Shown here piece after piece: positions 13,005-50,328 of a stretch of 64,000 nt of DNA; positions within the stretch are counted from its first letter, which is position 1; every line of letters starts with the position of its first letter. This stretch comes from Nitrosopumilus sp. GTDB taxonomy: Archaea > Thermoproteota > Nitrososphaeria > Nitrososphaerales > Nitrosopumilaceae. The stretch spans positions 1,440,001-1,504,000 of the forward strand of contig OZ252243.1 of assembly GCA_965249555.1 (NCBI GenBank). Reading direction: 5' to 3'. Below the pieces are notes generated by a model. That model had not been told where the DNA came from, searched no databases, and saw only the letters and a list, made by a program, of their open reading frames with translations. The position numbers and the translations under genes were made by a program.

Positions 13005-13738
13005 TGGGTGGACGAGATGCTACAATGGTTCTATTGGACGAAAATGGAATTCGTTGCGACGGAAGAAAAATCGACGAACCAAGACGAATAATGATTAAAG
13101 CTGGTGGACTAAAAAATGCAGATGGCTCGGCATACATTGAATTTGGTGATAATAAAATCCTAGTTGGTGTATTTGGTCCAAGAGACGTACATCCAAAACA
13201 CATGTCTGATACTGATACTGGAATTCTACGAGTTAGATACCACATGGAACCATTCTCTGTTAGTGACAGAAAAAACCCAGCTCCGTCAAGAAGAGAAATT
13301 GAAATTTCCAAAGTAATCAAAGAGGCACTAGAGCCTGCAGTTATGTTAGAAAAATTTCCAAGAACAGCAGTTGATGTATTTATCGAAGTCTTGCAAGCAG
13401 ATGGTGGCACTAGATGCGCCGCACTTTCTGCGGCTTCTGTTGCATTAGCAGATGCTGGAATTCCAATGAGGGATATGGTTGCAGCATGTGCTTCAGGTAA
13501 AGTAGCAGATACCATCGTCCTTGATGTCAACAATGAAGAGGACCAAGCAGGTCAAGCAGATATGCCAATCGGTTATATGCCAAGTCTTGAAAAAATTACG
13601 TTATTACAATTAGATGGAGTCCTATCTCCTGAAGAATATAAAAAATGTGTAGAGGTTGGAGTCAACGGTTGTAAAATTGTTTATGAATTACAAAAGAAAG
13701 CACTCAATGACAAATACTTTGGGACCAAAAGTGATTAG
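13004..13738 (+). CDS. rrp41: exosome exonuclease Rrp41
   Basis: RCDGR, ADGSAY, SRREIEIS and QADGGTR motifs. Confidence 0.97.
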   Translation: MGGRDATMVLLDENGIRCDGRKIDEPRRIMIKAGGLKNADGSAYIEFGDNKILVGVFGPRDVHPKHMSDTDTGILRVRYHMEPFSVSDRKNPAPSRREIEISKVIKEALEPAVMLEKFPRTAVDVFIEVLQADGGTRCAALSAASVALADAGIPMRDMVAACASGKVADTIVLDVNNEEDQAGQADMPIGYMPSLEKITLLQLDGVLSPEEYKKCVEVGVNGCKIVYELQKKALNDKYFGTKSD

Positions 13739-13740
13739 AT

Positions 13741-14559
13741 ATGGCATCACATACTGTTATTGATGAATTAAAAAAAATACAAATTCTTGAATTACTAGAA
13801 CAAGGAAAAAGAATAGACGGACGAGCACTAGATGAACCACGAGAAATCTCAATTGAAATTAATGCAATTCCTAAAGCAAATGGTTCAGCAAGAATATTTC
13901 TTGGTGATACCGAAGTCGTATGTGGAGTAAAAATCCAACCAGATAGACCTTTCCCAGATATGGGAGACAAAGGTATTTTCATTTGTACTGCTGAACTTTT
14001 ACCACTCTCACATCCTACTGTTGAAACAGGACCACCACAACCTCATGTAATTGAATTGGCACGAGTTACTGATAGAGGAATTAGAGAAAGTCACATGGTT
14101 GATGTGTCACAATTAGTTATTGAAAAAGACAAATCAGTTGTTGGTGTATTTGCTGATATTGTAGTTATTGATTATGATGGAAATCTCTTTGATGCATGTT
14201 CTTATGCTGCTACTGCTGCATTGCTTACATCAAAAACTCCAAAATGGACTATGGTTGATGATAAAGTAACACGTGTTGATGAGGATGAGACTCCATTACC
14301 AACTACAACAATTCCAGTATCTGTAACTATGGGAAAAATTGGAAATCACATTATTGTTGATCCAAATGGCGATGAATGGGCTAGTATGGATGCAAGAATT
14401 ACAATTACTAGTGATTCTGATGGAAATATTTGTGCCTTGCAAAAAGGTGGCACTGGTGGATTCACACAAGACGAAATTGTTCAGTGTGGAGAACTTTCTG
14501 TTAGAATAGGTGCAAAAATCAGAGAAAAATTAAAAGCATCTCAACAGGAAAGTCAATAA
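13741..14559 (+). CDS. rrp42: exosome component Rrp42
   Basis: RIDGR, ANGSA, PFPD and YDGNLFDA motifs. Confidence 0.96.
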   Translation: MASHTVIDELKKIQILELLEQGKRIDGRALDEPREISIEINAIPKANGSARIFLGDTEVVCGVKIQPDRPFPDMGDKGIFICTAELLPLSHPTVETGPPQPHVIELARVTDRGIRESHMVDVSQLVIEKDKSVVGVFADIVVIDYDGNLFDACSYAATAALLTSKTPKWTMVDDKVTRVDEDETPLPTTTIPVSVTMGKIGNHIIVDPNGDEWASMDARITITSDSDGNICALQKGGTGGFTQDEIVQCGELSVRIGAKIREKLKASQQESQ

Positions 14560-14560
14560 A

Positions 14561-14773
14561 ATGGCAAAAGCAAAAAAATCCCTTAAGGGATTAGGTGCAA
14601 GACATGGAATTAAACTTAGGAAACAATATACAAAAATCCATTTTCTATTAAAAGAAAAGAGAAGCTGTCCTGAATGTGGTTCAAAGACATTTGGTAGGGA
14701 TGCTGTGGGAATTTGGTCTTGTAAAAAATGCAGCTTTAAAGTAGCTGGAACAGCATATGACATTAAACTTTAG
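14561..14773 (+). CDS. rpl37ae: 50S ribosomal protein eL43 (L37ae)
   Basis: GARHG…LRK and CPEC…GIWSCKKC zinc finger. Confidence 0.95.
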   Translation: MAKAKKSLKGLGARHGIKLRKQYTKIHFLLKEKRSCPECGSKTFGRDAVGIWSCKKCSFKVAGTAYDIKL

Positions 14774-15002
14774 TGCAAAAATCACTGTTGATGCAAAAGA
14801 GAAAACAAAGGCAATTTATGATTCTGTAAATACTGACAATGAATTTTATCCAGAAAATCCTGTAAAGACTGAGATAAAATTCAACGAAAAGTTAAGCATT
14901 TTTGTTGAATCTGAACACTTGCCACATTTGAGAGCAAATCTCAATTCTACACTTCGACTAATTCAAGTAAGCCATGATTCAATTGAATCGGTAAAGATAT
15001 AG
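14757..15002 (+). CDS. pcc1: KEOPS complex subunit Pcc1
   Basis: LRANLNSTLRLI motif; position after rpl37ae. Confidence 0.85.
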   Translation: MTLNFSAKITVDAKEKTKAIYDSVNTDNEFYPENPVKTEIKFNEKLSIFVESEHLPHLRANLNSTLRLIQVSHDSIESVKI

Positions 15003-15059
15003 CGTGTTTCAACACTTGTTTTTGGATAATGACTAGTTCCTATGGATGTTAAATTATAA

Positions 15060-15904
15060 CTATAGAATCATGTATATCATGTATTTGATTATGCCATTAA
15101 ATGATATTCCTAATTTTGTAGCTGTTCCACTTTCTGTAATATTTGGTTTTTTAATTTCACTATTGATATATAGATTATCTCCAACGGAAGGTGAAACAAC
15201 ACTATCAAATTGATCTACAATAGATATACTTCTTGCAGTTATTTTTTCATGATGTATAGTTTGCTGTGATTTATCTATATCAGCTAAAACAACTCCATTC
15301 ATCCAAGGATGTAATATACAATAATATGAATAACTACCAGATTGTCCAAAAGTATGAGAAAATTCACAAGCTGTAGATAAACTGTTACTAGCAAAGTCAT
15401 GAACAGGATTTTCAGGAGTGCCACTTTTAATGGAATGAGTTACATGATCTTGGTTAAACCAAGTAACAGTGTTTCCAGATTTTATTTGTATAATTTTTGG
15501 CGAAAAGCATTCATTACATTCAATATATGATTTTTCTTTAATTTGAATTACATGTGTTGTTTTTCCAGATTGTGCATCTGCTAATACTCTACCATCTAAG
15601 AACCCACTATTTCGATTTCTGTAATATTATATGGTATATTGGGAATTTCTATATGCCTTGTAGAATCATTATGAACACCATCACTAAAAACTATCTCTTT
15701 ACCATTTGCTAGAACAATAAATTCATCATCATTTTGTCCATTTTTTGAATCTAGTATGTCTCTATCTAACAGAATTAGTAAACTCCCATTTAATTTAATC
15801 CAAACATCAAAAACTAAAGATCGATTATCTTTATCATCATTTACTTTTGAAACGTCCATATTCAATGTTTTTACAGTAACGGATCGATATCTGTTCGTTA
15901 TCAA
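15060..15904 (-). pseudogene. frameshifted surface protein: PEFG-CTERM-associated-like domain + cupredoxin + C-terminal TM
   Basis: The frame of ORF 15060..15302 extends upstream without ATG through FSPKIIQIKSGNTVTWFNQDHVTHSI…YSYYCILHPWMNGVV (type-1 Cu ligands H/C/H/M); ORF 15596..15904 is in another frame with the shift near 15600. Confidence 0.65.
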
Positions 15905-33012: not shown

Positions 33013-33014
33013 AG

Positions 33015-33088
33015 TGCAGTTACCGGGATTTGAACCCGGGTCACTAACTTGGCAAGCTAGAATATTAACCAAACTGTACTATAACTGC
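33015..33088 (-). tRNA. tRNA-Gly(GCC)
   Basis: GCAGTTA/TAACTGC acceptor stem, anticodon arm CTAGC-TTGCCAA-GTTAG, T arm CCGGG-TTCAAAT-CCCGG; CCA not encoded. Confidence 0.96.
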
Positions 33089-34238: not shown

Positions 34239-35701
34239 GTATGTATCAACCTTCACGCACAAATCAACACTATTACACAAAAAGATCTAAGATCAACTAA
34301 ATCATCATACAAAACATGTCAGGTTGTGGTCATGAGAAAATCATCATACAGCTACAAAAAAAGACAAAACAACAAGACGAAGTGATAAAACAACTACAAG
34401 CAGAGTCAAAACAACAAAAACTAATCATAGAGAATCTCATAGAATCAAACAAGGAACTGCAAAAAAAGCTGTCATATTATGAGAATGCGCACTCTCCGCC
34501 ATCAAAGAATTCCCTTGAATGGAGAAAGCAAAAAAGACAACACAGACAGCCAGGCAAATCAAGACGTGGTGGAATAGCAGGACACGTTGGCAAGACACAG
34601 AAATTCAGACCAACTAGCACCAAACACCACAGATCAGATGCATGTCCTAAATGCGGTAGTGAAAATATTCATCAAACCAAAACCTGCAAAAGGATAATGG
34701 TTGAGATTCCTCCACCAACACCCTACGGTATAACTGAGCATGTTTTGAATCAATACATCTGCATGGACTGTTCTGATAATTTTCAAACCACGGGAAACCT
34801 TCCATCACATGGATGTTTTGATGGTTCAGTGATACGTGAGGTAGTCTCACTGTTCTCAAAGAGATTGACATACGATGCTATCAGAGCCACACTCTATGAA
34901 AGATATGGATTAGAAATCAGCAATACAACCGTACAATCCATTCTTCGCAACGGTAGTGTGATGTTAGAGTCATTTTACAATACAATCCACAGCGAAATCG
35001 TGACTGAAAAGATTCTCGGAATCGATGAGACAGGATTTTCAATTGATGGAGATACTGGATGGATGTGGGTTGCAAGAAGCAAGACTAGTGCACAGTATGC
35101 CTTGGAGTACAGCAGAGGTGCCAATGTTCTAAAAAAGTACTGGAAGAAATTCAAAGGAACCCTAGTGTCTGACGGATATGCTCCGTACAGGACAGTATTT
35201 TGTGATAACACAAAGCAGAGATGCACCGCACACCTGCAGCGCGATGCCAAATATCTGGCAATAAAATCAAAGGACAAAAAGGCCAGGATTCTATATGAGA
35301 AACTCTCAGGGATGCTAGGTCATGCCAGGGTTTGGAGTGTAGGTAATCGTCATACAAAACGGCGGGAAACGTACAGGAATGATTTACTAAAACAGCTGGA
35401 CCGTATCATTGCACGATATTTGAAAGGTGATACGGAGATGGTTCAGTTTGGCAAGAAGCTAAAGACTGCAAGGAACAGCATGTTTACGTTTGTCATGGAT
35501 GGTGATGTCCCGTCAACTAACAATGATGCAGAGAATTCCATTCGAAAGTGCGTGATGCAGAGGAATGTTCGCGGGCAGATGAAGAGTGATCAGGGCATGA
35601 GGATGATCTCAGTCTTTCTCACATGCTTTGAGACATGGAGAATAAGGGAATTGAACATGTTTTCTGAGATGGCAAAATACATCTAAGTGCTTAATACATA
35701 C
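34239..35701 (+). mobile_element. complete single-ORF IS66-family element (ISBst12-like)
   Basis: Imperfect TIRs GTATGTATCAAC / GTATGTATTAAG; 8-bp target duplication ATTTTTTC at 34231-34238 and 35702-35709; 1463 bp. Confidence 0.92.
34316..35686 (+). CDS. IS66-family transposase
   Basis: Coiled coil, SPPS, CPKC…CMDC, IDETG, VSDGY, QRCTAHLQR and TNNDAENSIR motifs. Confidence 0.95.
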   Translation: MSGCGHEKIIIQLQKKTKQQDEVIKQLQAESKQQKLIIENLIESNKELQKKLSYYENAHSPPSKNSLEWRKQKRQHRQPGKSRRGGIAGHVGKTQKFRPTSTKHHRSDACPKCGSENIHQTKTCKRIMVEIPPPTPYGITEHVLNQYICMDCSDNFQTTGNLPSHGCFDGSVIREVVSLFSKRLTYDAIRATLYERYGLEISNTTVQSILRNGSVMLESFYNTIHSEIVTEKILGIDETGFSIDGDTGWMWVARSKTSAQYALEYSRGANVLKKYWKKFKGTLVSDGYAPYRTVFCDNTKQRCTAHLQRDAKYLAIKSKDKKARILYEKLSGMLGHARVWSVGNRHTKRRETYRNDLLKQLDRIIARYLKGDTEMVQFGKKLKTARNSMFTFVMDGDVPSTNNDAENSIRKCVMQRNVRGQMKSDQGMRMISVFLTCFETWRIRELNMFSEMAKYI

Positions 35702-36106: not shown

Positions 36107-36146
36107 CTTTTTATTTCTGGTACGTTTAAAGATATTGTTTTCAGGT

Positions 36147-36310
36147 ACTGTTAACTTTACGGGATCTCTCCAAATTGCTGTTAAGTCGAGACCTATGAAT
36201 TTTCTCCTGATTTTTCAAGACTGTTAACTTTGTGATCTAATACAAGTCCGATTTGAAAGGGATTCAGACGTGAGTATATGAAAATAGATTAACTGTTAAC
36301 TTTGTGATCT
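36147..36310 (+). repeat. three ACTGTTAACTTT(GTGATCT) motifs spaced 73 and 72 bp
   Basis: Copies start at 36147, 36220 and 36292. Confidence 0.8.
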
Positions 36311-36841: not shown

Positions 36842-37798
36842 TTAGAGGCAGCTGCATTTATGAGACTGATATTTTTTTGAAATGTCTACATTGTCAAGAC
36901 CTGCAACAAATGCTGGTGTCTTTCCCTCAAGACCCATATGTGGTCTTACAAAGTTATGATGTATTCTAAGCAAGTCTGCATAGATCTGAGATGAATCATC
37001 ATTGTCTAATCCCCTGCGCACCTTCAGATTGGCAGATATTTCATTTGATATTTTTGTAGCCAAAAGAAATCGTGTTTTAGGATCAATTGCAGACCAAAGC
37101 CAATTATAGTATCCTTTCTTTGAAATAGGTTCAGTTTTTCTTACATTGATCATCTTTTCATCAACTGACCAAGCATTACCAATTGTAGGTTTGAGTGTAT
37201 CCACATATTCTTTAATTGTAATGCTATATTTTTTTATCCAGTATCCTATAGTCACATGAGATATCCGTATCCCTCTTACATTTGAGAGATGTTCTGCTGT
37301 GTTGCGCAAAGACATTCCAGACATGATCAAATTTAATGCCTCTGAGATCATACTTGGCTCAAATTTTACTTTTGCAAATCCACTTTCAGAATTTGTAAAT
37401 TTTCTGTCACAGTCTTTACACCCATATATTTGTAATTTTCCCCTATACTTGGTTTTTCTAAATCCTTTTTTGACTATTTTTGTAGATGAACAATATACAC
37501 ATATTGAAGGAATTTCTAACATTGGTTTTTTAAAATTCGATGTTACATCCTGTGAACCATGTAAAAACTCATGTACATACAGTATGTGACTGCATCTCTT
37601 ATCATCATTTCCACTTCGTAATCTGTCAATAAAATCATAGCATTGGCATGTCCACACATCAGATTTTAGCGTCTTTGTCACAGTATACCTCATTTGGTTT
37701 TTCTGAGAATCTACTTGATAGCGATTATTGTTAATACGTTTCACTGTATAATGCTTAAAGGCGTTTTTCTGTACCGTCTGTGTATGTTGTTTTACCAT
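36842..37798 (-). pseudogene. IS6-like DDE transposase with SWIM and Zn-ribbon domains, internally deleted
   Basis: CQC…CSH (SWIM), CVYC…CKDC, HTH, WSVDEK and HHNFVRPHMGLEGKTPA are present; the segment carrying the second D and the E is missing. Confidence 0.85.
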
Positions 37799-37885
37799 AT
37801 TACCATTATACCATATAATTAAAAGGTATAAAAAGATAATGGTAATTACCGCCAAATTTAATTATGAGGTAGATTGACACTTGTT

Positions 37886-38259: not shown

Positions 38260-41200
38260 TTAAATTTTTTCGTATTCTATTAATACTTGATTTTTAAATT
38301 CCTTTGCAACAATAGGAAAATTATCTAGAATATATCCCAAGTTTTCTTTTGATATATTGCAAATTTTTGTAGCATATGCATTAATTTGTGCCATCAATTC
38401 ATTTCGTTCAATTTCATTAGTTACTACATCATTGATTTTGAGTTCATTTTTTATATCTTCATACTCTTGTGTGATACAAATTAATCTTGCAACTCTATTA
38501 GCAATTTCCAGAAGTAATGGATCATCCTCTGTTAATTTTGGAACTGTAATTTCTTTAACATAAAACATGTTAACGTTAATTGCAACTTTATGTCTAATCA
38601 AAAAATCAATAACAAATGAATTTAGCATTCCACATAAGTAAAGTAATTCTTTATAACTCAAAAACTTTTCAAATTTTGAACCATTAAAAAATATTGGTCT
38701 TATGTAATTTAATGAATTTCCTAAATATACATTTGGAGGTAAAATGGTACAGATTAATGTACGCTGATTTGTTGCATTACTTATCAGTCTCCATCCAATT
38801 CGGAAATGATCAGCAGGGATTTGTAGTTGTATGGATTTAGATTTTTTATTATTTTTACTCAAGATTCTATTTACTTTTGTTTTTTCTCTACTTGAAATTG
38901 CATTTCGAGCTTTTCCAAAATCTATCCAGTATCTTGGTTTTTTAAAAGTATGTGTAAATTGATGAATCATTTTCCCTTCAAATAAAACAGCTCCATTTCC
39001 TTCAGTATTAAAAATAGGAGCATCATCTGTCATGTTAAATTCTCGTTGAAATTCTAAACCCCATTCAGGATATGATAAAGCTGAAAACTCGCTCATCTTT
39101 TTGAAAATCTCTACATCTTTTTTATTACTACATTCAATAATTGATAGAGCAATTGGGGAAAGTTTTCTTACAATTTCAATATCATAATCTATAGATTCTG
39201 TTTTCATTCTTGAGAGTTGATCTGCATCTTGAAGATAAAATGCAGATTTGAAAACAGATGTTTTGGATCCTTTTGAGAAAATCAATGTAATAAATTTGAA
39301 TTGTCTGTGTATTTCTTTAAAAATTCCCTTTCTATTTTCAAACCCATAAAGTGAAATAATTTTATTTTTATTGAACAACATATTTCGTAATCCATTAGAA
39401 CCTAAATCAGTATATATTCCAGAAGGTAAAATAACACCTGCAATGCCATTTTTTTTCAAGAGGTGATAATATTTTTCAACAAATAATTGATATAGATTAG
39501 ATTTGATCTTATTTCGTTTAACAGCTATTTGTGGAATCTGATATGTATATTGTGAACTATTTTTAAAAAATTCTTGTTGAATGTCTATGTCACTATTGTA
39601 TTTTTTCCAATTACTTGAAATTTCTGAATTCTCTAACAGTTTTTTAATAATTTCATTTTTCTCAGATTTTTTCAGCGATGTAAATTTTTGTAATTTATCT
39701 GAATTATGTAATAAGCCAAAAAATTCATTAATATTTGGTTCTAAAATCTCCCAAGGCGGATTCCCAACCACAGCATCAAATCCAGGATTTTTCTTCCGTT
39801 TCCCATTTTCATCATAAAAGATGTCAGGAAACTCCAAGTCCCAATGGAAGAACGAATGCTCTGAGGCAGTTTCCTTAACCTGTTGCCATCTCTCATCGGA
39901 ATAAAAGTCGAGGCTGTTCTCGCCGATTTTTGTGACAAAATCACCTATCGGAGGCACATCTACATCAAATGACTTGGCCAGTTTGGCATCTAGTAGGAAC
40001 TTTAGATCATAGTATACGGTTCCTTTTGACTGCATGCTGCCATATTTTACAATCTTTGTCTTTACTGCCTGAGCAGTGTCGTCTTCCCATGTCTCAAGCA
40101 TGATGAAATCTCTCACGGTTTTCTTAAAGCGTGTGCGTCCCTTGGTTGATTCCATCAGTGTTGTCTGTTTCTCAAGTATGTCATCAATGCTAGAGCCAAT
40201 CAATGAGTTACCTGATTTTATATGTGCACTCAAAAATGACAATGGTTTTTCAGAAGAAAGGGTTTCAAGCCACAGTGAGACACTGGCAAGATCAACTGCA
40301 AGGGGGTTTATGTCAACCCCATAAATGCACCGTCTGGCAACATCTCTCTTTCTCTCCACAAATGCAAGTTCAGTTATTTCATCTTTGTGTTCTATCTGGC
40401 AGATTCTTCTTGCAATATAGTTTGTTGCACCAACCAGAAAGTGACCGGACCCCATTGCAGGATCCAAGACATTTAGAGCAAGTATTTGATCAACCTGCTC
40501 ACTAGGATCATCTGTTTTCTTTATTATATCATCAATTAATGGACCTATCGCATTTTCCACAATATAGTCTACAATATACTTTGGCGTGTAATAACTTCCA
40601 GTGGATTTTCTTTCTTTTGGATTTGGCAGGTCAGATACTTTGCCGTCTTTTACAGTGAGATGATATTCCAAAAGATGCTCATAAATGGATCCAAGATGAC
40701 GGGTCTCAAGTGCAGCATAGTCTAAAAAGAAATAATTCCCTTTTTTATCTCGGGTTCTAGTCAACAAGCTTATTGCATCAAGAAGATTCTTGTTTGGAAT
40801 CTTCCATTTTTCTAGATTGGAATGGATTTTTCTGTCAAATAATCTTCCATAGTATGAACGCATGGAAAACTTTTTTGGATCATAGTCCAGATCCTCACTA
40901 CCCATCTCAATTAACCTGAATAGTTTTTTCAGTCTTTCATGAACCTGATATTTAACAACATCATGATCAGATTTTAAAATCCATTGTGATTTTATCCATT
41001 TGAGGCTAAAGTTATCGTGATAGAATTTCTCATCTGGAAACACCGAACGGTCTTCTGCATAAAGGACAAACATGATCCTATAAAGTAAAATAAATGAGGG
41101 CTCTCGAATATCTTCAAGTGTTTGTTCATCCAAAGTAAGATTATTTGATTTATCCAAAATAATTCCCTCAGATAATATCTTTAATGCCTCAAACACATTT

Positions 41201-41697
41201 ACTGTTAACTCATCATGAATCTGGATTGCAAATGAATCAAAAGCATCAGATACTTTGGATACAATTGATGATGCAATTGAATCCTCATCAACTCTGATTT
41301 TTTCAAGAAAATCTACAAAAGTTTTTGGAACACCTGTGTCTGACTTGATGTCTATTGGAACATGCCTTGTCTCTGAGAATGATTTTGAGAATTCCTTTGA
41401 AAGGCTTGAAAATACCCACTTGAATCCGCCTGGATTGTGCGAGCATACCATGGCAAATCCATGATTGTCTTTGATTATTTTTGTGGAGATTCCTTTCCAT
41501 TCTCTTAAAGAATCTGTGTTTGTCTGGACATAGTAAATTTGATAATCATTTTTGCTTGCAATTATTCTTGCTTCTGAAACTGTTTCCTTTTGCTTGTCAT
41601 TCCAATTGTCCTTATTTACTGGCTTGTCTGCAAAATCAAAGTTTAGTTCTGAAAACAAGTTTCGTAACGAGTTCAGATCTTTTAACCTGTATGCCAA
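38260..41697 (-). CDS. Eco57I/Type IIG-like N6-adenine DNA methyltransferase with C-terminal TRD
   Basis: GSYYTP, LDPAMGSGHFL, IYGVDIN, GNSL, FHWDLEFP and FDAVVGNPPW motifs. Confidence 0.93.
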   Translation of the reverse strand: MAYRLKDLNSLRNLFSELNFDFADKPVNKDNWNDKQKETVSEARIIASKNDYQIYYVQTNTDSLREWKGISTKIIKDNHGFAMVCSHNPGGFKWVFSSLSKEFSKSFSETRHVPIDIKSDTGVPKTFVDFLEKIRVDEDSIASSIVSKVSDAFDSFAIQIHDELTVNVFEALKILSEGIILDKSNNLTLDEQTLEDIREPSFILLYRIMFVLYAEDRSVFPDEKFYHDNFSLKWIKSQWILKSDHDVVKYQVHERLKKLFRLIEMGSEDLDYDPKKFSMRSYYGRLFDRKIHSNLEKWKIPNKNLLDAISLLTRTRDKKGNYFFLDYAALETRHLGSIYEHLLEYHLTVKDGKVSDLPNPKERKSTGSYYTPKYIVDYIVENAIGPLIDDIIKKTDDPSEQVDQILALNVLDPAMGSGHFLVGATNYIARRICQIEHKDEITELAFVERKRDVARRCIYGVDINPLAVDLASVSLWLETLSSEKPLSFLSAHIKSGNSLIGSSIDDILEKQTTLMESTKGRTRFKKTVRDFIMLETWEDDTAQAVKTKIVKYGSMQSKGTVYYDLKFLLDAKLAKSFDVDVPPIGDFVTKIGENSLDFYSDERWQQVKETASEHSFFHWDLEFPDIFYDENGKRKKNPGFDAVVGNPPWEILEPNINEFFGLLHNSDKLQKFTSLKKSEKNEIIKKLLENSEISSNWKKYNSDIDIQQEFFKNSSQYTYQIPQIAVKRNKIKSNLYQLFVEKYYHLLKKNGIAGVILPSGIYTDLGSNGLRNMLFNKNKIISLYGFENRKGIFKEIHRQFKFITLIFSKGSKTSVFKSAFYLQDADQLSRMKTESIDYDIEIVRKLSPIALSIIECSNKKDVEIFKKMSEFSALSYPEWGLEFQREFNMTDDAPIFNTEGNGAVLFEGKMIHQFTHTFKKPRYWIDFGKARNAISSREKTKVNRILSKNNKKSKSIQLQIPADHFRIGWRLISNATNQRTLICTILPPNVYLGNSLNYIRPIFFNGSKFEKFLSYKELLYLCGMLNSFVIDFLIRHKVAINVNMFYVKEITVPKLTEDDPLLLEIANRVARLICITQEYEDIKNELKINDVVTNEIERNELMAQINAYATKICNISKENLGYILDNFPIVAKEFKNQVLIEYEKI
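39753..39942 (-). repeat. 190-bp inverted repeat, copy A (inside the MTase gene)
   Basis: Reverse complement matches 47461-47650 with no mismatch seen. Confidence 0.97.
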
Positions 41698-41723
41698 AGT
41701 TTCTAGTTTTTTATCAGCCAGAT

Positions 41724-44700
41724 CTAATCTCTCACATATTTGCTGTACAGAATTCGAGGTGAGCTATTCTCTTCTTCGTTTTGTTTTATTTGGTTTTGTA
41801 TCTTATAGTGCAGATACAACTGGCTAAGATGTTGTAGTAACTCCGAATCATGCATTTTACTTTTCTTAATTTTTAGTAATTCTTTGTTTAGTCTTCTCTT
41901 TAGAATGGGAATGGAATATGCCTTTCGCAGCGTTTCAATATCTTCTTTTTTATCCAAAAATTCTTTGATGCTATCCATTTTTATCAGTTTTTCAAGTACC
42001 CATCTCTGTGCCATACTTAATCGTACACTTGATTCCCTAGCTTGGATCTGTTCTGTGTCTTCAACAAATTTCTTCCAACCCACAGATACTAGTTTGTCAT
42101 AGTCTGAAGGAGTAGAATAAACAGCTTCGTCGTCTGATTCTAAAATTTCCAAGGCTTTTTGTATTCTTATCTCTTTGATCTCTTCTTTTGTATTAATCAT
42201 ATAGTATTTCCTTACTTTACCGCTTCGCTCAGTTCCACTTTCACATGCCAAAAGCAACTGACCGCCTGATTTTACATTATCTGAGCTTCTTATGCCGTTT
42301 GGAATTGTTCTTATCTCCTCCCAAAATTCTGGTTTGTTTACTTGTATATCTTGCAGGATTTTCTCAAATTTTGATGGCTCTAAGGGATTCACTTCTTCTC
42401 TATCTAGAATTGATTCATCACACTTGTAAATTGCATAAGTGTCTTTAGTATTGATTGATTCTTCTGGTTTGAGTATTTTATAGTCTTCTCCTATTATTTG
42501 ATGTATTTTATCAATTTTGGCATCAACATGCTCTTCAAGTTTAAAATCCTTTTTCATTTCTAGATCTAACAGAAAATTATGCACTATAACAAATTCATTC
42601 TGACTTCCAATTCTATCTACTCTTCCTGCTCTTTGAATTAACCTAGTTGGATTCCAGTGAAAATCATAATTAATTATAACCTCACCCGCTTGAAGGTTTA
42701 CTCCTTCAGATAATACATCAGTAGTAATCAATAAAGAAATTTGTTCAGATTTTTCCAGTTTTGATTCATTACTTGGATTATTGACAGGATCAAACCTTCT
42801 TGCACATTCTATAGCATTTCCAGTAACAGAATCTACCCGCTCTTTGATTCCATTCCATCGTACATAATCACTTAGATATTTTACAGTAGTGGCAAACTCT
42901 GAAAATATGAGAACTTTCTTTCCAGAATATTCGTTATCAAGTAGATCTTGTAGTATGCGCAACTTGTTATCTGTCTTCCATGTGAGTCTGTGAATTAAAC
43001 CATCAATTGTCTCAAATATCTCAATATCGTTTTGAATGTCTGAAGTTAATTTTTCAATGTCAAATGCCTCAAATTTGTATTTTGTCTCACCAGATTCCTG
43101 AATCTTTTTTCTAAATTCATCAATAGTTTCAGGATCGTTTATGGAATCCGGATCAGACTGTGCAATTTCATACATTTCCTTGTAAGACACATCTCCTATT
43201 GGGATAATCCCTTCATCTAATAATTTAAGAAAAATCTTATGACTGTCAATATAATGTCTGATGCTTTGTTTGAATGCTTCAAGACTACTTTCCATTCTTT
43301 TTAGCAATAATGTTCTGATTAATCCTATGAGTTTTTTCCCAGCAATTCCTAACTCTTTGTATAATTCGACATTTTTGTATTCATCTTTTAGATACAATCC
43401 CAAGCTATATCTGGCAAGAGTAAGAGTTTTTACATCTGGGTTTGATTCTGGCTTGGCAAGATAACCTACAATCGTCTTAAATTTTCTTTGATAGACTGCG
43501 TTAATATCATATCTCTCTATTCTCATTTTACGTTTAGGGAAATACTTGTTTTCACCCCCGACTTGCAGATATTTTCTGTCATTTTCGTCCACTTTGCCCC
43601 ATTGACTTAGAACATATCTTCGAGTTCGTCTAATCATGATGTTTCTGAGCAGATCCACCAAGCTAGCATCGCCATTTTTTATTTGTCCAAAGTATCTGTC
43701 AAGATCAGTCTCATTTGCAGGTGGGATAGATGTTTTTGATGTCTGATGAAATAACATTATCTGGTTTTTAATATCCATTTCTTTGTTGGAGTATGGGGTT
43801 GCAGTAAGTAGAATTGCTTTTGCATCTTGAGCCTGCATGAATTGATAGAGGTTTTCATACTGTCTTGAATCACTGTTTCTGAAATGATGACTCTCATCAA
43901 TTAGCACCAAATCCCTACTATTGTATCTGTAATCCTGATACAATTCAAAATTTTCCTGTGATAGCTTACCTCGTGATAAAATCTTTGCATCTACCTCATA
44001 ATCCTCACAGAATTTTTCCCACATGGGAATTAGTGGTGGTGGACAAATAATCAAAGGTCTGTACTCTTGCCGTTGTAAATATTTTAGCAATGCTATTCCA
44101 ACATATGTTTTTCCCAATCCTACAACATCGCCAATTATCACTCCTCCATACAACTCAAACATTGTAAGACCCTGATCAACTGCATTTCTCTGAAATGGAA
44201 ATAGTTTTGGAAATTTTTGTTTCCATATGGGATCAATCTCATGTTGTTCTTCCAGTTTGTCTTTATGTTCTAGATATGCAGCTTTTAGAAACAGGTCTTT
44301 AGAGGAGTAGATTTTTCCTGCCCATGAATTTGTTAATATTAAATTAAAATCTTCGGTGAACTCTAGTCCGTCTTTCCATAATTCATTAAACCAATTTAAA
44401 AGCTGGTTAACATCTGGAGAATTATATGTTTTGAGATTTAATTCGCTGTTTTGCGAGATGCCTGCAATCGATAGATTACTAGAACCCACAATGCCCATAC
44501 CTTGGGAAAAATCAGTATCTTTTGGCTGGAAGATGTAGGCCTTTGCATGGAGTTTCTCTTTTGGATATACCCGAACTTCTAGCTGTTTTGTTTTCATCAT
44601 TTCAATGAGTAACTCTACCACTGTTTTATCTTCACTAGTCTGACTCATGTGTTCTAAAGACTGTTTTATGTTGTCTTTAGAGTCCAAGATCACATTAGTT

Positions 44701-44984
44701 TTTCTATCCTCATTTACAAAATTTTTCTTATCAACTTCAGTTTGTACTTCCTTGATACTATGAAATCCTTCAATTAGAGCTTCGGCAGTTGTCTTGTCAG
44801 TGGTATTTGAGATTAGCAAACGAACCTTGTTTATGTCCTTTAGGGATTGAATTATTACAGATAATCCAGAAATGAAAAAATACCCTACTGCAATACTTGC
44901 ATTTTCAGTCTTTGGTAAAATCTTTAGCAGTTCATCTTTTAGAATTACCTCCTTGTTGTCAATTACATTATCTTCTCGAAGCAT
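41724..44984 (-). CDS. PLD-nuclease / SNF2-like helicase fusion
   Basis: HAKAYIF…GSSNLS (PLD), GDVVGLGKT, DESHHFRN, TATP, SEGVNLQ and QRAGRVDRIG motifs. Confidence 0.93.
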   Translation of the reverse strand: MLREDNVIDNKEVILKDELLKILPKTENASIAVGYFFISGLSVIIQSLKDINKVRLLISNTTDKTTAEALIEGFHSIKEVQTEVDKKNFVNEDRKTNVILDSKDNIKQSLEHMSQTSEDKTVVELLIEMMKTKQLEVRVYPKEKLHAKAYIFQPKDTDFSQGMGIVGSSNLSIAGISQNSELNLKTYNSPDVNQLLNWFNELWKDGLEFTEDFNLILTNSWAGKIYSSKDLFLKAAYLEHKDKLEEQHEIDPIWKQKFPKLFPFQRNAVDQGLTMFELYGGVIIGDVVGLGKTYVGIALLKYLQRQEYRPLIICPPPLIPMWEKFCEDYEVDAKILSRGKLSQENFELYQDYRYNSRDLVLIDESHHFRNSDSRQYENLYQFMQAQDAKAILLTATPYSNKEMDIKNQIMLFHQTSKTSIPPANETDLDRYFGQIKNGDASLVDLLRNIMIRRTRRYVLSQWGKVDENDRKYLQVGGENKYFPKRKMRIERYDINAVYQRKFKTIVGYLAKPESNPDVKTLTLARYSLGLYLKDEYKNVELYKELGIAGKKLIGLIRTLLLKRMESSLEAFKQSIRHYIDSHKIFLKLLDEGIIPIGDVSYKEMYEIAQSDPDSINDPETIDEFRKKIQESGETKYKFEAFDIEKLTSDIQNDIEIFETIDGLIHRLTWKTDNKLRILQDLLDNEYSGKKVLIFSEFATTVKYLSDYVRWNGIKERVDSVTGNAIECARRFDPVNNPSNESKLEKSEQISLLITTDVLSEGVNLQAGEVIINYDFHWNPTRLIQRAGRVDRIGSQNEFVIVHNFLLDLEMKKDFKLEEHVDAKIDKIHQIIGEDYKILKPEESINTKDTYAIYKCDESILDREEVNPLEPSKFEKILQDIQVNKPEFWEEIRTIPNGIRSSDNVKSGGQLLLACESGTERSGKVRKYYMINTKEEIKEIRIQKALEILESDDEAVYSTPSDYDKLVSVGWKKFVEDTEQIQARESSVRLSMAQRWVLEKLIKMDSIKEFLDKKEDIETLRKAYSIPILKRRLNKELLKIKKSKMHDSELLQHLSQLYLHYKIQNQIKQNEEENSSPRILYSKYVRD

Positions 44985-45144
44985 CTTAATTATGAAATGT
45001 TCCTAACCCTAAGATAAAGTTGACTAACACAATGTGATTTTTTTTGGATCAGTATTGAAAGACAACATAACTGTAGTTAGAAATAACATAGAATCGATAT
45101 TTTTCTTACATTTGTTGTGATATAGTCATTCTAAAAATCATAAT

Positions 45145-46059
45145 GTGATTATGTATATGTTAGATAATGGCAAACAAAACACTAGAACACTATTAGCGTA
45201 TATGTCAATATTGAGCATGAAATCAAAGTCAACTCAAAAATTATTCCAGTGTACAATAAACAACATAGAAACCTTTGGTAAGATAGATGTCAAAAACATA
45301 TCAATATATGATGAAGATAATATCTATGATATTCTTCAAGAATGGATAATCTGGAACAGTAAACGTGGGATAACTGCTTCAAGTATAATGTGTTATTTTA
45401 ACAACCTCAGGTCCTATCTTTGGTATCGCAGAATAAAGCTTGATTGTAGAGAGATAAAACATAATCTAAGATTTCCACAAACATTGCACGAATATGAAAT
45501 TCCAATAACTGTAGGTGCAATAGGGAAAATTCTTCGTGTGTCAGAATTGGAATTTCGATTTCAACTCTTGGCTTTGATATCAAGTGGAATGAGAGTAAGT
45601 GAACTAGGGCAGATAAGACTAGCACATCTCGATCTTACACGTACAAATGTAATGGTACTACTTCCTGCTAAAATAACAAAAACAGGCAGATCACGTATAA
45701 CATTTTTTTCAAAACAAGTTTCAGATATGATACGTTACAGAATTAAAATTCATAAATCCGATTTTATATTCTGTGGAAATAGAACACGAGAGCAAGCCCT
45801 CAATCTTGTTCTAAAACGTTTTGCAGCTGCAAGAAAAAAAGCTGACCTGATGGAAAAATACAGTCACTGTAAACAAAACAGATACAGAATTCATGTTCAT
45901 AGTATGAGATCATACTTTATAACAAAGGCAAACAACATACAGTTTGGATTGGGTCATATTCTTGCAGGGCATAATTTTTACATGAAGGAATATAACAAGT
46001 ACACTGTTGACGAATTACTTTCCATGTACAAAAAATTTGAAAAGGATGTAACATTTTAA
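45145..46059 (+). CDS. tyrosine recombinase
   Basis: SSGMRVSE (R), TKTG (K), HSMR (HxxR), LAGH (H) and a C-terminal Y in EYNKY. Confidence 0.93.
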   Translation: MIMYMLDNGKQNTRTLLAYMSILSMKSKSTQKLFQCTINNIETFGKIDVKNISIYDEDNIYDILQEWIIWNSKRGITASSIMCYFNNLRSYLWYRRIKLDCREIKHNLRFPQTLHEYEIPITVGAIGKILRVSELEFRFQLLALISSGMRVSELGQIRLAHLDLTRTNVMVLLPAKITKTGRSRITFFSKQVSDMIRYRIKIHKSDFIFCGNRTREQALNLVLKRFAAARKKADLMEKYSHCKQNRYRIHVHSMRSYFITKANNIQFGLGHILAGHNFYMKEYNKYTVDELLSMYKKFEKDVTF

Positions 46060-46153
46060 AAAATATAGATATAATTGCCAAAATTTCGAAATTATTTTTT
46101 ACTTTTCTAGTATCTTGTCTTTAAGAAATCAAATTGCTGTAATCTAATTTTGT

Positions 46154-47230
46154 TCACAATATGTTTTCTAAATCTTCTTTTGTTGTTTCACTATCTTCAT
46201 CTGTTATTTCAACAGAGCCTTTGGGTTCTATCATATATGCTAAAGAATTCTCATCACAATCATACAGGGCTAAAATATCCGAGTCTTTAACACTTGATGT
46301 CATATGTTCTCTCTCTGATAAATTAGTTTTCATATGAGAATCACAATTCCAAGGGCAATTGGCAACAAATACCAGTGTGTATCTAGCACGTATGGAATAA
46401 TTGTTAGTCAATTGTGGAAGTAATAACGATCCGCCAATTACAAATAATCCGATTTCTATTTGTTTGGTAAATATTCCAACATCTGGAGGATCGCCCAAAA
46501 AAACAATGTATTTGAGTGCAACAATTACAGAAGACAGACCAGCAAGTGCAAAAAGACCTATCTTTGTGGGTGCAGTAGAAGTACGTGTGGGTTTAAAGGA
46601 ATACGAAATCTCAAAACTCTCCTCAATATCGGATATTATTCGAAATAAATTAGAGTTGTAGGTTCTGAATTTTTGTACGTACTCTGGCTGTTGATAACTC
46701 TGCTTTATTTTACCATCCTTGATGAAACCATATCGTGTTTGAGCAAAATCAAAGTCATTAGGTGTAAACAAAGTATAATACAAAGGATAGGGTTGTTTTT
46801 TAATTTTCATTTTCAAAACAGATCTTGGCGGATCTATATGATGTGGAGAATAGTTTAGAGTAAATGTTCTAACCTCATTTTTATACAATGATTTATTTTT
46901 TGGAATCTTAATCCATATCATGTGTAATTCCTCCGCATTTATTTTTGAATTAAAATGCTCTAGTTTTTCTTGTGTTTCATTGGAACTTTTTTCAATAAAA
47001 TGATTAATCAATTTTTTAACATCCCTTGTTGTCATAACAGGTAAAATGGAATCATCCTCATCTCGAACCAATAAGTTTAGCAAGAATTTATCTGACAGAA
47101 TTATGATGTTTGTCAATTCTTTTCTTTTTGATTTTATGGTATATTCGCTTACTATGCTTCGCTGTTCTTTATGATCATGTGAAATAAACAATCGTTGTCT
47201 TAGAATCTCTATCATAGAAGTAACTTGCAT
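46154..47230 (-). CDS. hypothetical membrane protein
   Basis: Soluble N-terminus plus 2-3 C-terminal TM segments; tail may be a frameshift read-through into a small acidic ORF. Confidence 0.7.
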   Translation of the reverse strand: MQVTSMIEILRQRLFISHDHKEQRSIVSEYTIKSKRKELTNIIILSDKFLLNLLVRDEDDSILPVMTTRDVKKLINHFIEKSSNETQEKLEHFNSKINAEELHMIWIKIPKNKSLYKNEVRTFTLNYSPHHIDPPRSVLKMKIKKQPYPLYYTLFTPNDFDFAQTRYGFIKDGKIKQSYQQPEYVQKFRTYNSNLFRIISDIEESFEISYSFKPTRTSTAPTKIGLFALAGLSSVIVALKYIVFLGDPPDVGIFTKQIEIGLFVIGGSLLLPQLTNNYSIRARYTLVFVANCPWNCDSHMKTNLSEREHMTSSVKDSDILALYDCDENSLAYMIEPKGSVEITDEDSETTKEDLENIL

Positions 47231-47460
47231 CTAAAAACAACAAGTAAACATATCATTTTATCTGACAAGGTTTAGAAAAAACATTTTTTACTCCAAAACA
47301 TTGAACACCAAAAAATATTGTTAGAATTCAGAAATAATCTCTTGTCTTACAGATCGCTTGTTCTAATCAGAATACATCAGACAATCATAAAGCATTTAAA
47401 AATTCTTCGAGTATTTTTTTGCAAATTTTTAGAATTGTTTATTGAATCTTCAAACTGGCA

Positions 47461-47650
47461 GATTTTGTCACAAAAATCGGCGAGAACAGCCTCGACTTTT
47501 ATTCCGATGAGAGATGGCAACAGGTTAAGGAAACTGCCTCAGAGCATTCGTTCTTCCATTGGGACTTGGAGTTTCCTGACATCTTTTATGATGAAAATGG
47601 GAAACGGAAGAAAAATCCTGGATTTGATGCTGTGGTTGGGAATCCGCCTT
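47461..47650 (+). repeat. 190-bp inverted repeat, copy B
   Basis: Runs GATTTTGTCACAAAAATCGG…GGGAATCCGCCTT; matches copy A. Confidence 0.97.
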
Positions 47651-48942
47651 ATAACAAAGAGATGAACAATAAAGTAATTTTTAAACCTATCAAGAGATCT
47701 CTTTATAAAAAATATCATCAAGGAAAAATGGATTATTGGTATTTCTTTATACATAGGGCCATAGATCTAACTAAAAACGAGGGAAGGTTCGGATACATTA
47801 CAAACAGTTATTGGATTAAATCAAAGGGCTCATCAAAATTGATTCAACGTATCAAAGAAAACCTAATTCTCACAAAATGTATTGATTTTGGTGGAATAAA
47901 AGTATTCAAAGAAGTAAATGACAAACATATGCTTCATTTCTATCTAAAAAAGAATTTTTCAAAAACAGATAAAACAACATATGTTTTATTAAACAAAGAA
48001 AATTTTAACGAACAAATAATAGAAGAATCACCTATTATCAAACCATTTCATGATGTAATAGATGATGATAATTTAGATTTTTCAAAAAATATAGGAATCA
48101 TTTTTACTAATTGTGATGAGTTAGCTATTTTTTATAATGTTAGTGTAGGAGTTCAAGAATCCCCTGATAAAATCAGTAAGAAAGCATTAGAAAAAAATAC
48201 AGACATTGGAATCAAAAAAGGCATGGGTGTATTTGTTATATCAAAATCAGAACTAGAACTATTACATCTAAGTAACAATGAAAGAAAAATAATTAAAAAA
48301 TACTTAGATCCTCACGATGTTGGCAAGTATTTTATAAAATTTAATGAACAGTATCTTATTTATTCAAATAGACTTACTAAAACAAAAATATCCAATGGTG
48401 ATTTTCCTAGTTTAAAAAAGCATTTAGATAAATTTGAAAAATTTATTACTTCTTCAAACAAGCCGTATGGAATTCATCGATTTAGAGAACAGAGATTTTT
48501 TGAAGACCCTAAACTGTTATGTAAATCTATGTTTAACATACCACAATTTTGCTATGATGACCAAAAACACTATGTAGGATTTTCATTTTCGTCAATAATT
48601 AATAAAAACCCAGATTATGATCTCAAATATTTATTGGGTCTACTAAATTCAACGTTAGCAAATTATTGGTTTCATAAAAAAGGTAAAAAAAGAGGCGGTG
48701 GATTAGATATTCTTGTTTATACTTATAGAAAATTTCCAGTATTCAAAGCTACATTTGGACAACAGAAAAAAATTGTGGATATGGTTAATAAATTACTAGA
48801 ATTAAACAAAAATCCATTAGATGGCATAAGAGAAGAAAACAAAAAAATTATGGAAAATTTAGATCAGTTTATTTTTAAAATGTATGAATTAAAACCAATA
48901 CATATAGCATACATTAAAAAGAATTTTAGTTCCATAATATAA
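47461..48942 (+). other. headless alternative MTase C-terminus/TRD cassette
   Basis: Open frame from the repeat through GNPPY, DYWYFFI, YITNSYW and LKYLLGLLNS to stop 48942; lacks the SAM-binding motif I and N-terminus. Confidence 0.9.
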
Positions 48943-48954
48943 GTAATATGAAAA

Positions 48955-50328
48955 TTAAACAATTCTAACATCTGTGAATTTTACATAATCTCTTTTAATT
49001 ATATCCCAATACTCAAAATCAAAATTCAACATAGCCAAAAAGATCCTAGTAAGCAGTACAAAAATTCCCTTGTATGCTCTAAACAATATACTATCATCAT
49101 TTTCAACTGTTTTAACACGTCCCATATGCGTAATTTTGTTTCGAATTTTAATTATTTCTTCAAGGGTTATCTCAAGATCATCATATTTTATTTCCCAGTG
49201 TTCTAGCAACATTTTAGCTTTGTTACGATACGATCTTCTTTGCATCGCATCAATTCCATTATACATTAGACTTTGTGTTTTATCATCAACATTCATTTCA
49301 ATAAGAATTTGCTTCATTTGATTTTTAATTTTTTTCCTAAATTTTTCAAATTTGTCATCTGAGATTAAGAATTCTGTGTTATTGTCGAAATGAAATTTTT
49401 CTAAAAGAAGTTCTAAAGATGTTGTAGCACACAGAAATCTAGTTTCTAGGTTTCCAGAATTCCATGAATCTACATACCATTCTAGCGCATATGAAAAACC
49501 GTGTTTTTTATCGATCTTTTTAGAATATCCTTTTAACACAGATTTTAGGAAATAAGCAATACTGATTTTATCTGTTAAGCCAAAATTACCAGGTTGTTTT
49601 ATTTTAGTATGGATAATCTCAAAGAAAATCCTTGGCATTTGTTCATTGCATTTTATTTCATAAGCAGATACTGCCACTACACTATGCCAAGATGTCTGTG
49701 CAAGGCTTGTTAATTTTAAAAAATTAGCAATGAATTCTCTTGCCATCGTTATTGTTTCTTGAGTTGTTGTTACCTTATCTTTTGGAATGTGTAAAGATAT
49801 TACGGAAGTAATTAGCGGTGTATTATATTCCTTCATCATAGACTCTAGTTTCTCAATATCTCTGAAATGGTTAATTCTGAGTTCACCTATTTCAGTATCT
49901 AAAATAACTCTAAAAGTTGAGAACATATTGGTAACATAAAATTTAATTTGAATTCCTTTGGAATCTCTACTAATTTCTCTATATGGAAACTCTAGTTTCC
50001 CTATAGAAATTTTTGCTTTTACTGAAATTACTTTGTTCCATTTTTCATGTATTCCAGTAATAAAACATTCTTTTGCTGCAACATTCTCTCCTTCCTTATT
50101 GATCCCTCTAATTTTGAAATGTTCTGATCTTCTAAGATATTCTAATAATTTAGGGTTCTTAATATTTATAAATTCTAACTCGCCAGTGGTAATTCCATTC
50201 TGATTAAGCTTTATCCAAAACTTTACATTATTTTCAAAACCATCCTCACAAATTATTTTACCTTCTCCTAAAGTTTCAAAAATAGGTTTTAAAATTTCTT
50301 TATCTATTTTTTTATTTTTCTTTGACAT
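48955..50328 (-). CDS. ApeA-like HEPN domain protein
   Basis: C-terminal RNKITH (RxxxxH) with upstream TSLE; beta-rich N-terminus. Confidence 0.75.
   Translation of the reverse strand: MSKKNKKIDKEILKPIFETLGEGKIICEDGFENNVKFWIKLNQNGITTGELEFINIKNPKLLEYLRRSEHFKIRGINKEGENVAAKECFITGIHEKWNKVISVKAKISIGKLEFPYREISRDSKGIQIKFYVTNMFSTFRVILDTEIGELRINHFRDIEKLESMMKEYNTPLITSVISLHIPKDKVTTTQETITMAREFIANFLKLTSLAQTSWHSVVAVSAYEIKCNEQMPRIFFEIIHTKIKQPGNFGLTDKISIAYFLKSVLKGYSKKIDKKHGFSYALEWYVDSWNSGNLETRFLCATTSLELLLEKFHFDNNTEFLISDDKFEKFRKKIKNQMKQILIEMNVDDKTQSLMYNGIDAMQRRSYRNKAKMLLEHWEIKYDDLEITLEEIIKIRNKITHMGRVKTVENDDSILFRAYKGIFVLLTRIFLAMLNFDFEYWDIIKRDYVKFTDVRIV

Follow-up and report, generated by a model that had tools for sequence, protein, structure and literature searches.

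A candidate invertible specificity switch in a restriction-modification-like defence system of a Nitrosopumilus chromosome

Programmed inversions that alter the specificity of a restriction-modification (R-M) system are a major bet-hedging device of bacteria. Here we describe a locus in the chromosome of an archaeon that is likely to switch a two-gene R-M-like defence system between two specificities by inversion. It lies at positions 38260-48942 of a stretch of 64,000 nucleotides (nt) from Nitrosopumilus sp. (GenBank assembly GCA_965249555.1, contig OZ252243.1, positions 1,440,001 to 1,504,000 of the forward strand; hereafter the window). The two genes of the system encode a DNA methyltransferase (MTase) and a PLD-SNF2 helicase, and a 190-nt stretch inside the MTase gene recurs, inverted and identical, in front of a second MTase C-terminal half that has no start. 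A tyrosine recombinase is encoded between the two copies. The observed structure is real, and the switch is probably functional. The genome carries archaeal small- and large-subunit rRNA and an archaeal AmoA gene, and the host is an ammonia-oxidising archaeon of the genus Nitrosopumilus.

The closest described systems are bacterial. Milman et al. (Nucleic Acids Research 2023; PMC9881135) reported programmed inversions, confirmed by long reads, in bacterial homologues of Cj0031, which are Type II MTases, with an adjacent coding sequence (CDS) for a PLD and SNF helicase protein, examples being Bacteroides ovatus CP083813.1:5322008-5329826 and CP044495.1. According to the parts of that paper that concern these loci, inversions were also confirmed in DrmMI-like and PglX genes, Eco57I-domain MTases were among the enriched targets, and the scan covered bacteria only. 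On the archaeal side, a review of archaeal tyrosine recombinases (PMC8371274) describes the int1 invertible region of the haloarchaeal virus phiCh1, in which tail-fibre variants arise by inversion within coding sequence, and the Thermococcus nautili pTN3 integrase, whose recombination substrates are identical segments of 104 bp or more. In the network presented in the same review, archaeal recombinases were unrelated to the shufflon recombinase Rci, and the portion of the review available to us makes no mention of an archaeal R-M inverton.

No archaeal chromosomal R-M inverton was found in the literature searched, of which supplementary tables may list predicted archaeal cases. Chanin et al. 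(PMC10028968) included 42 archaeal long-read sets (36 Euryarchaeota and 6 Crenarchaeota) and obtained 12 archaeal invertons, with no R-M case mentioned in the accessible part of that paper. The words 'inversion' and 'recombinase' do not occur in a review of archaeal R-M systems (PMC11033074), and the main text of a REBASE hsdS survey (PMC7394358) does not mention archaea. This class of device is thus already known from bacteria, and an archaeal chromosome as its host is apparently new. An earlier, preliminary description of the window knew of no characterised archaeal example, which agrees with the literature searched; the gene content itself is not new, since inversion at bacterial loci sharing it has already been confirmed by long reads (PMC9881135).

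The features of the locus, in positions of the window, are:

38260-41697, minus strand: open reading frame (ORF) of the MTase, 1145 amino acids (aa), Eco57I/N6_Mtase type
38260-39752, minus strand: W-type C-half of the MTase (expressed), NPP-W; residues 649-1145, with the motifs after IV and the C-terminal specificity region
39753-39942, minus strand: left arm of the inverted repeat, coding for MTase residues 586-648 and the first base of codon 649
39943-41697, minus strand: N-half of the MTase, residues 1-585, the S-adenosylmethionine (SAM)-binding part of a gamma MTase; inside the putative invertible segment
41724-44984, minus strand: PLD-SNF2 helicase, 1086 aa, co-oriented with and upstream of the MTase, 26-nt gap
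44985-45144: divergent intergenic region, 160 nt between the starts of helicase and recombinase, which would flip with the segment
45145-46059, plus strand: tyrosine recombinase, 304 aa; PF00589, 1.6e-13, 51.2 bits (cut-off 27.1)
46154-47230, minus strand: ORF without family, 358 aa, inside the segment between recombinase and right arm
47461-47650, plus strand: right arm, identical to the left arm
47650-48942, plus strand: Y-type C-half (silent), NPP-Y; 430 aa past the arm, without start or N-terminus

The arms at 39753-39942 and 47461-47650 are 190 nt each, 100% complementary and 7518 nt apart, and the arm sequence was found in exactly two copies in the 2.23-Mb single-contig genome. A perfect match of 190 nt is far beyond what chance would give. 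The genome contains 16 inverted pairs that reach 100 nt and 95% identity and whose members lie no more than 20 kb apart, many of them longer than 500 nt; many of the 16, which are not annotated, are probably copies of insertion sequences (IS). It is therefore the in-frame location of this arm pair, rather than the repeat itself, that is special. The left arm begins on a codon boundary (residue 586), encodes DFVTKIG...GFDAVVGNPP and stops directly after the NPP of catalytic motif IV (GNPP). The right arm is in the same frame as the MTase on the plus strand and runs free of stops through to 48942. Past the arm, the expressed gene reads NPP-W-EILEP... and the second copy NPP-Y-NKEMN..., so that the two halves part at NPP|W and NPP|Y. 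Both the identical inverted stretch and its in-frame continuation into an uninterrupted second MTase C-half without a start, as given in the preliminary description, were confirmed.

Three other short inverted pairs on contig OZ252243.1 were noted: 1913779-1913970 with 1915747-1915938 (192 nt, 99%), 349788-349959 with 350192-350363 (172 nt, 100%) and 1239852-1240012 with 1247646-1247806 (161 nt, 100%). These could be IS ends or further invertons.

The repeat is genuine and not a product of the assembly. Three public sequencing runs (X1-X3; one study, two samples), stored as Logan contigs, were available for comparison. At all four arm borders, contigs of these runs extend 30 nt into the arm, and in run X1 the 190-nt repeat stands as a contig of its own, for which reasons an assembly artefact, named in advance as a possible refutation, is not indicated.

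The second half is silent as it stands. A stop precedes the right arm by five codons, no start codon lies between the two, and in this frame a start is first met at 47566, as an internal TTG. A 458-aa ORF beginning at this TTG was listed, and the Y-type half might accordingly be expressed alone as a subunit acting in trans, with no inversion involved. We regard this as extremely improbable: the TTG belongs to the arm and is also an interior codon of the full MTase, and the SAM-binding N-terminal part is missing, with Pfam matches that begin at position 41 of Eco57I and position 119 of N6_Mtase. Besides, full-length relatives always have the Y part fused behind an N-half.

The complete MTase matched PF07669 (1e-22), PF02384 and PF20473. 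Its nearest PADLOC models were Type IIG and DrmMI, and the PglX model also matched. For residues 1-350 the Pfam search showed no family and no nuclease domain, and no relative of the MTase was found when PDB was searched by sequence. Type IIG enzymes combine nuclease, MTase and target-recognition domain (TRD) in one polypeptide; the MTase and TRD parts match here, and a PLD nuclease-like domain is found on the neighbouring helicase. The W-type half showed similarity to TIGR02987, the family of Alw26I/Eco31I/Esp3I MTases, over residues 628-1144 (128 bits, cut-off 353.5). The Y-type half covers profile positions 41-171 of the 171 positions of PF07669 and contains the TaqI_C specificity domain PF12950 (2.7e-12). 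It thus supplies the later catalytic motifs and a specificity domain, in line with the alternative C-terminus and TRD originally proposed. Outside the arm, no similarity was found between the W-type and Y-type halves, and a whole-genome search found no further half of either type. Inversion in silico replaced the 1145-aa MTase by an uninterrupted MTase of 1078 aa, so that the predicted in-frame alternative enzyme was obtained.

The helicase showed matches to PLDc_2, RE_NgoFVII, SNF2-rel_dom and Helicase_C in Pfam and to PADLOC model PDLC01075 'HKD+Snf2' (2.6e-62). All its NCBIfam matches were under their cut-offs, including the DrmD model (123.9 bits compared to 610). The PLD (HKD)-SNF2 protein is presumed to be the restriction or translocase partner of the MTase. 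In the recombinase, R150, H252, R255, H276 and Y283 were invariant in an alignment of five recombinases, and K179, kept in 4 orthologues, is a candidate for the hairpin lysine by position. Of the full R-K-HxxR-H-Y set read earlier, the R, HxxR, H and Y were thus borne out but the lysine was not, K179 being a positional candidate. The nearest NCBIfam model was archaeal XerA NF040815, with 54.8 bits compared to an equivalog cut-off of 220, and the protein is not XerA by that criterion. A split partial paralogue of the recombinase was observed at OZ252243.1:648929-649569 (31-42% identity over residues 13-196). The segment was otherwise found to hold what had been listed for it, namely the MTase 5′ half, the helicase with its upstream region and the recombinase, to which the previously unmentioned 358-aa ORF is to be added. 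This ORF matched no family in Pfam, PADLOC or NCBIfam.

From these parts the following working of the switch is proposed. Helicase and MTase would be read as one unit from the divergent region 44985-45144, which presumably holds the promoters of both the helicase and the recombinase. The MTase would consist of a constant N-half (residues 1-585), a repeat-encoded segment of 63 codons ending at GNPP, and an exchangeable C-half with the remaining catalytic motifs and the TRD. Recombination between the arms would flip the 7518 bp between them, on which lie the helicase and the recombinase with the putative promoter region separating these two, the MTase N-half and the 358-aa ORF. The N-half would then be joined in frame to the Y-type half to give the 1078-aa enzyme, and the W-type half would lose its start and promoter. 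Since nothing outside the arm relates the two halves to each other, each state should have its own target sequences, for methylation and for restriction alike. The tyrosine recombinase in the segment would be the most likely catalyst, probably acting in the inner third of the arm. The PLD-SNF2 protein may be an ATP-dependent nuclease or translocase whose choice of target depends on the MTase, in which case modification and restriction would change together. The term shufflon used in the preliminary description goes too far for the window, in which one inverton with two arm copies and two alleles was found.

The locus shows features by which R-M invertons are recognised: one arm lies in a full CDS, the other heads in frame an opposite partial CDS of the same family, and a site-specific recombinase is encoded at the locus. 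Compared by description with the loci of Milman et al. (PMC9881135), it likewise has a PLD+SNF2 CDS beside a long Eco57I-type MTase, with the repeats in the MTase CDS and in a partial CDS, by which the later part of the MTase is, or here would be, exchanged. It differs from those loci, as they are presented in the sections concerned, in that inversion was seen there in long reads and is deduced here from sequence. In addition, the flipped segment here would be the expression unit with helicase and recombinase, which is topologically equivalent to flipping the cassettes, and the exchanged halves come from different MTase sub-families (NPPW, Alw26I-like, as opposed to NPPY/TaqI_C). The breakpoint at motif IV, so that half of the catalytic domain would be exchanged, is one particular of the Nitrosopumilus system.

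Type I hsdS invertons such as SpnD39III/ivr of Streptococcus pneumoniae also combine recombinase-associated inversion between repeats within specificity-coding sequence with silent partial genes, from which alternative MTase specificities arise, as far as described in the pertinent parts of PMC4948785 and PMC7672463. Those systems swap TRDs of a separate S subunit, whereas half of a catalytic MTase polypeptide would be exchanged here, and they belong to another system type. In the inversions of BREX type 1 pglX and Class 1 DISARM drmMI, a large defence MTase is similarly varied with a recombinase adjacent, according to the passages of PMC9881135 on these genes. Unlike in BREX and DISARM, the partner genes PglZ, BrxC/PglY, DrmA, DrmB/DUF1998 and DrmC were not found among the proteins and ORFs scanned in the surrounding island; PglX models gave 25-55 bits compared to cut-offs of 400-900, and the only DISARM-related genes were DrmD-like and DrmMI-like. 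With phiCh1 and pTN3 the locus has in common an archaeal tyrosine recombinase that yields, or here would yield, inversions, and the pTN3 integrase acts on long identical repeats such as the 190-nt arms. In contrast, phiCh1 is a virus that varies an adhesin and not an R-M enzyme, and the pTN3 rearrangements of the chromosome, in the account given in PMC8371274, are large and unprogrammed.

The same module was found in other Nitrosopumilus genomes. The MTase N-half was scanned against 151 genomes of the genus and gave matches in 15 (loci are coded as follows: G000, this genome; L016, in genome G164; L017, in G160; L038, in G158; L015/L018, in G036; L039, in G163). A full N-half with 75-100% identity was present in four of the 151 (G000, G164, G160 and G158), with 82-83% in L016 and L017. 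The remaining matches consisted of the arm only in two genomes (G036 and G163), a fragment at a contig edge in one (G110) and distant paralogues in eight (32-39%). Among 401 genomes sampled from the phylum, only this genome itself had the N-half at E<=1e-30.

All four genomes with a full N-half (4/151) carry the complete module, i.e., a silent half on the opposite strand, its arm, a recombinase divergent from the helicase, the helicase, and an MTase with the arm at motif IV. The inverted arm partner lies upstream of the helicase on the opposite strand in each of the four, measuring 191 nt (82% identity) in L016, 192 nt (93%) in L017 and 197 nt (99%) in L038. An orthologous recombinase (62-70% identity) is located between silent arm and helicase in every system. 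The gene content of this interval is otherwise different, with no other gene in L017, a DDE transposase in L016, where it partly takes the place of the 358-aa ORF, and a HATPase_c_3 protein instead of that ORF in L038. The silent halves behind the silent arms are intact in 4/4, and inversion in silico gave an uninterrupted full-length MTase in each, the lengths changing from 1145 to 1078 aa in G000, 1157 to 1017 in L016, 1025 to 1050 in L017 and 1032 to 1135 in L038. NPPW is expressed with NPPY in reserve in G000 and L016, and NPPY is expressed in L017 and L038. The W-type half of G000 and the half that L016 expresses are 43% identical. In L017, the expressed half has homologues in the silent halves of L016 (35% over 437 aa) and G000 (61% over the first 113 aa). 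Outside the module, the flanks in L016, L017, L038, L018 and L039 are unrelated at both DNA and protein level. Conservation is thus confined to the switch module, which was inherited or moved as a unit.

Decayed remnants were found in two further genomes (L015/L018:6330-10260 and L039:5200-10550). In both, the recombinase side of the module is retained, the MTase N-half is absent, one arm is left and IS-like insertions are present, and they hold a truncated cassette of NPPY type with an N-terminal helicase fragment or none. L018 has a truncated helicase, a recombinase split in two frames and a cassette that stops after 27 codons of unique sequence, followed by an IS-like ORF; in L039, 40 recombinase residues are left and the ORF of the 358-aa type is interrupted. 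Residues 1-289 of the 358-aa ORF showed 96% aa identity in L018 and 71% in L039, the rest being present as separate pieces. Recombinase, cassette or both are thus broken in 2/2 remnants without the MTase; the parts of the switch decay once the system is lost and stay intact where it is intact.

These data bear on the reading of the second half and its arm as a static relic, left from a past rearrangement or cassette capture, with one fixed specificity. Such a relic would be in accord with the single orientation of the assembly and with the two remnants, by which the module is shown to decay. It is very unlikely in view of the arms, of which 100% and 99% identity over 190-197 nt would not be expected in a relic while orthologous arms differ by 16-28%. 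An open frame of 430 codons with all domains is likewise unexpected in a stretch of 27-28% G+C (both cassettes have this content, compared to approximately 33% in the window), and four species would not have kept this layout with its recombinase intact.

In L016, a second, nested inverton was detected in the 3′ part of the expressed W-type half (12513-15531). Its arms at 12626-12861 and 15053-15288 are 236 nt long and 99% identical, and further blocks are 77-93% complementary (one of them given as 96% in a second comparison). A second recombinase of PF00589 (13527-14447), 25% identical to the first, lies between the nested arms and is followed by a homologous, inverted partial cassette (14476-15285). 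This layout is the classical face-to-face one and points to repeated use of inversion by this MTase lineage; L016 could have three or more alleles.

Comparison of the arms pointed to exchange between them. Within genomes the arms are 100, 99, 93 and 82% identical (with 13 differing positions in L017 and 35 in L016) and between genomes 72-84%, the tree of arms pairs them by genome in three of four cases, and a 3-nt insertion is common to both arms of L038. The arms being more alike within than between genomes, they have undergone concerted evolution. The outer border of the arm is also exactly the point where G000 and L017 cease to be homologous. Between G000 and the remnant L018, the shared inner segment is 95.1% identical as a whole, with 93-98% in each of the eight 190-nt windows tested alongside the arm; for the arm itself the figure is 84.2%, and no relationship is seen farther out. 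This drop of identity at the arm indicates an exchange at the arm after the lineages split. Taken together with the presence of the module in 4/151 genomes and the expression of Y-type halves in two relatives, the concerted arms agree with the earlier reading of an expression unit flipping between two fixed cassettes, each structural step of which was borne out.

Within the arms, mismatches in L016 are unevenly placed, with 3 in the inner 72 columns compared to 32 in the outer 121. The sole invariant run of at least 8 nt across 10 arms is AAAATCGGC, which lies within the dyad GATT(T/A)T-N6-AAAATC, and the identity to L018 falls at the inner arm edge that bears this dyad. The corresponding feature in the window is:

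47461-47478, plus strand: candidate recombinase core, dyad GATTTT-N6-AAAATC at the inner arm edge; the same 18 nt at 39925-39942 (minus strand)

We regard this dyad as a weak lead to a possible recombinase core, our confidence being low because the sequence is also protein-coding.

Concerted evolution is expected from gene conversion as well, and the inversion might instead be made by general RadA-dependent homologous recombination, the tyrosine recombinase being a passenger, either an integrase of the island or a relic. The island in which the system lies is 18 kb long, adjoins tRNA-Gly and contains transposase genes of IS66 and IS1/IS6-like type, and such inversions between paralogous elements are documented in archaea in the part of PMC8371274 that deals with them. 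However, a passenger would hardly explain that an orthologous recombinase keeps the same place and orientation in 4/4 systems while other genes between arm and helicase vary, nor that the second inverton of L016 has its own recombinase, only 25% identical, between its arms. The L016 arms of the first inverton, 82% alike, are moreover ill suited, along most of their length, to homologous recombination. As to an integrase of the island, no att-like direct repeat of tRNA-Gly was found in 20001-64000 beyond chance matches of 10-12 nt. We therefore hold inversion by homologous recombination to be unlikely, although the precedent of the pTN3 tyrosine integrase, with its identical segments of at least 104 bp (PMC8371274, in the section concerned), blurs the line between the two mechanisms.

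Several observations weigh against a recombinase-driven specificity switch. The long perfect arms suit homologous recombination equally well and are more than a site-specific recombinase needs, and the L016 arms are only 82% alike. The assembly shows a single orientation, and the public contigs end 30 nt inside each arm and are uninformative as to orientation: the perfect arms are longer than the word size, so an inversion makes no new words and the contigs are silent on it. Outer flanks are not shared by any of the relatives, and the comparison of genomes thus yielded no orientation polymorphism. No inverted repeat of at least 50 nt was found in any of 39 metagenomic Y-type loci (control 3/3), where short-read contigs may break at repeats; an inverton is therefore no general feature of the family as sampled there. 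The W-type (NPPW) half is below the cut-off of its own family and its activity is predicted, and the recombinase is far under the XerA cut-off, with a catalytic lysine that is a candidate by position.

Apparent rearrangements at the locus were rejected as orientation evidence. A 100-nt match at 36139-36238, in inverted order in L015/L018, falls in IS-rich sequence. Four joints seen in the public contigs (37055>47936, 39664>46105, 41952>46164 and 45895>46051) were taken as chance matches of other DNA; their shorter side measures only 20-22 letters and is A+T-rich, and the joined sides of 41952>46164, which occurred in all three runs, are not in the genome. In X1 the word depth was 676 in the inner segment, 397 and 342 in the cassette flanks and 927.5 in the 190-nt repeat contig, with smaller differences in the other two runs; G+C bias, given the 27-28% G+C of the cassettes, or a mixed population may account for the difference in X1.

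Metagenomic relatives of the Y-type half were at best 39% identical, covering residues 1-425 of 430, and formed parts of long MTases, with a helicase homologue upstream in 20 of the 39 loci. The metagenome search with the Y-type half found no contig of the same species. This helicase family is thus usually paired with Y-type halves, and the silent cassette has its full length.

A fuller version of the inversion switch can be offered tentatively, and we hold it to be possible though rather doubtful in all its parts together. The system would undergo phase variation through a dedicated XerA-related tyrosine invertase that, acting at the inner arm edge on a short core, would flip the whole expression unit between fixed cassettes, so that the enzyme would alternate between two structurally different C-halves, Alw26I-like NPPW and TaqI_C-type NPPY. 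One species would have a nested inverton and at least three alleles, and the system would be the first archaeal chromosomal R-M inverton and possibly a phasevarion.

If the switch is active, with inversion at a useful rate, ammonia-oxidising archaea would vary their virus defence and genome methylation within one clone, and clonal populations of Nitrosopumilus, a globally abundant nitrifier, would be heterogeneous in virus resistance and methylome. The locus also offers a compact natural substrate for the study of an archaeal invertase, with two arms, one recombinase and four variants of 82-100% arm identity.

The surrounding island extends over approximately 33.1-51 kb of the window. It is bordered by the tRNA-Gly and a Na/H exchanger gene on one side and by L10e and tRNA-intron-endonuclease genes on the other. 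Its further features are:

33014-33088, minus strand: tRNA-Gly(gcc), left island border
34316-35686: IS66-family transposase gene
36842-37855: IS1/IS6-like transposase ORF
48955-50328, minus strand: ORF behind the silent cassette, 457 aa, without match in Pfam, PADLOC or NCBIfam and without homologue at the loci of the relatives

The 358-aa ORF of the segment, found in the two remnants, is missing from L017.

Elsewhere in the genome, a second Eco57I-like MTase of 1355 aa, 33% identical to the MTase of the switch, was observed at L079:9311-13378 (contig OZ252243.1:1934311-1938378). It was considered as a second inverton and rejected: no inverted partner of it was found, and the inverted repeats nearby (96 nt, 88.5%) lie on either side of a 598-aa ORF, where they resemble IS ends. 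An ORF of 1102 aa lies downstream of this MTase, and relatives of it are present in several Nitrosopumilus species.

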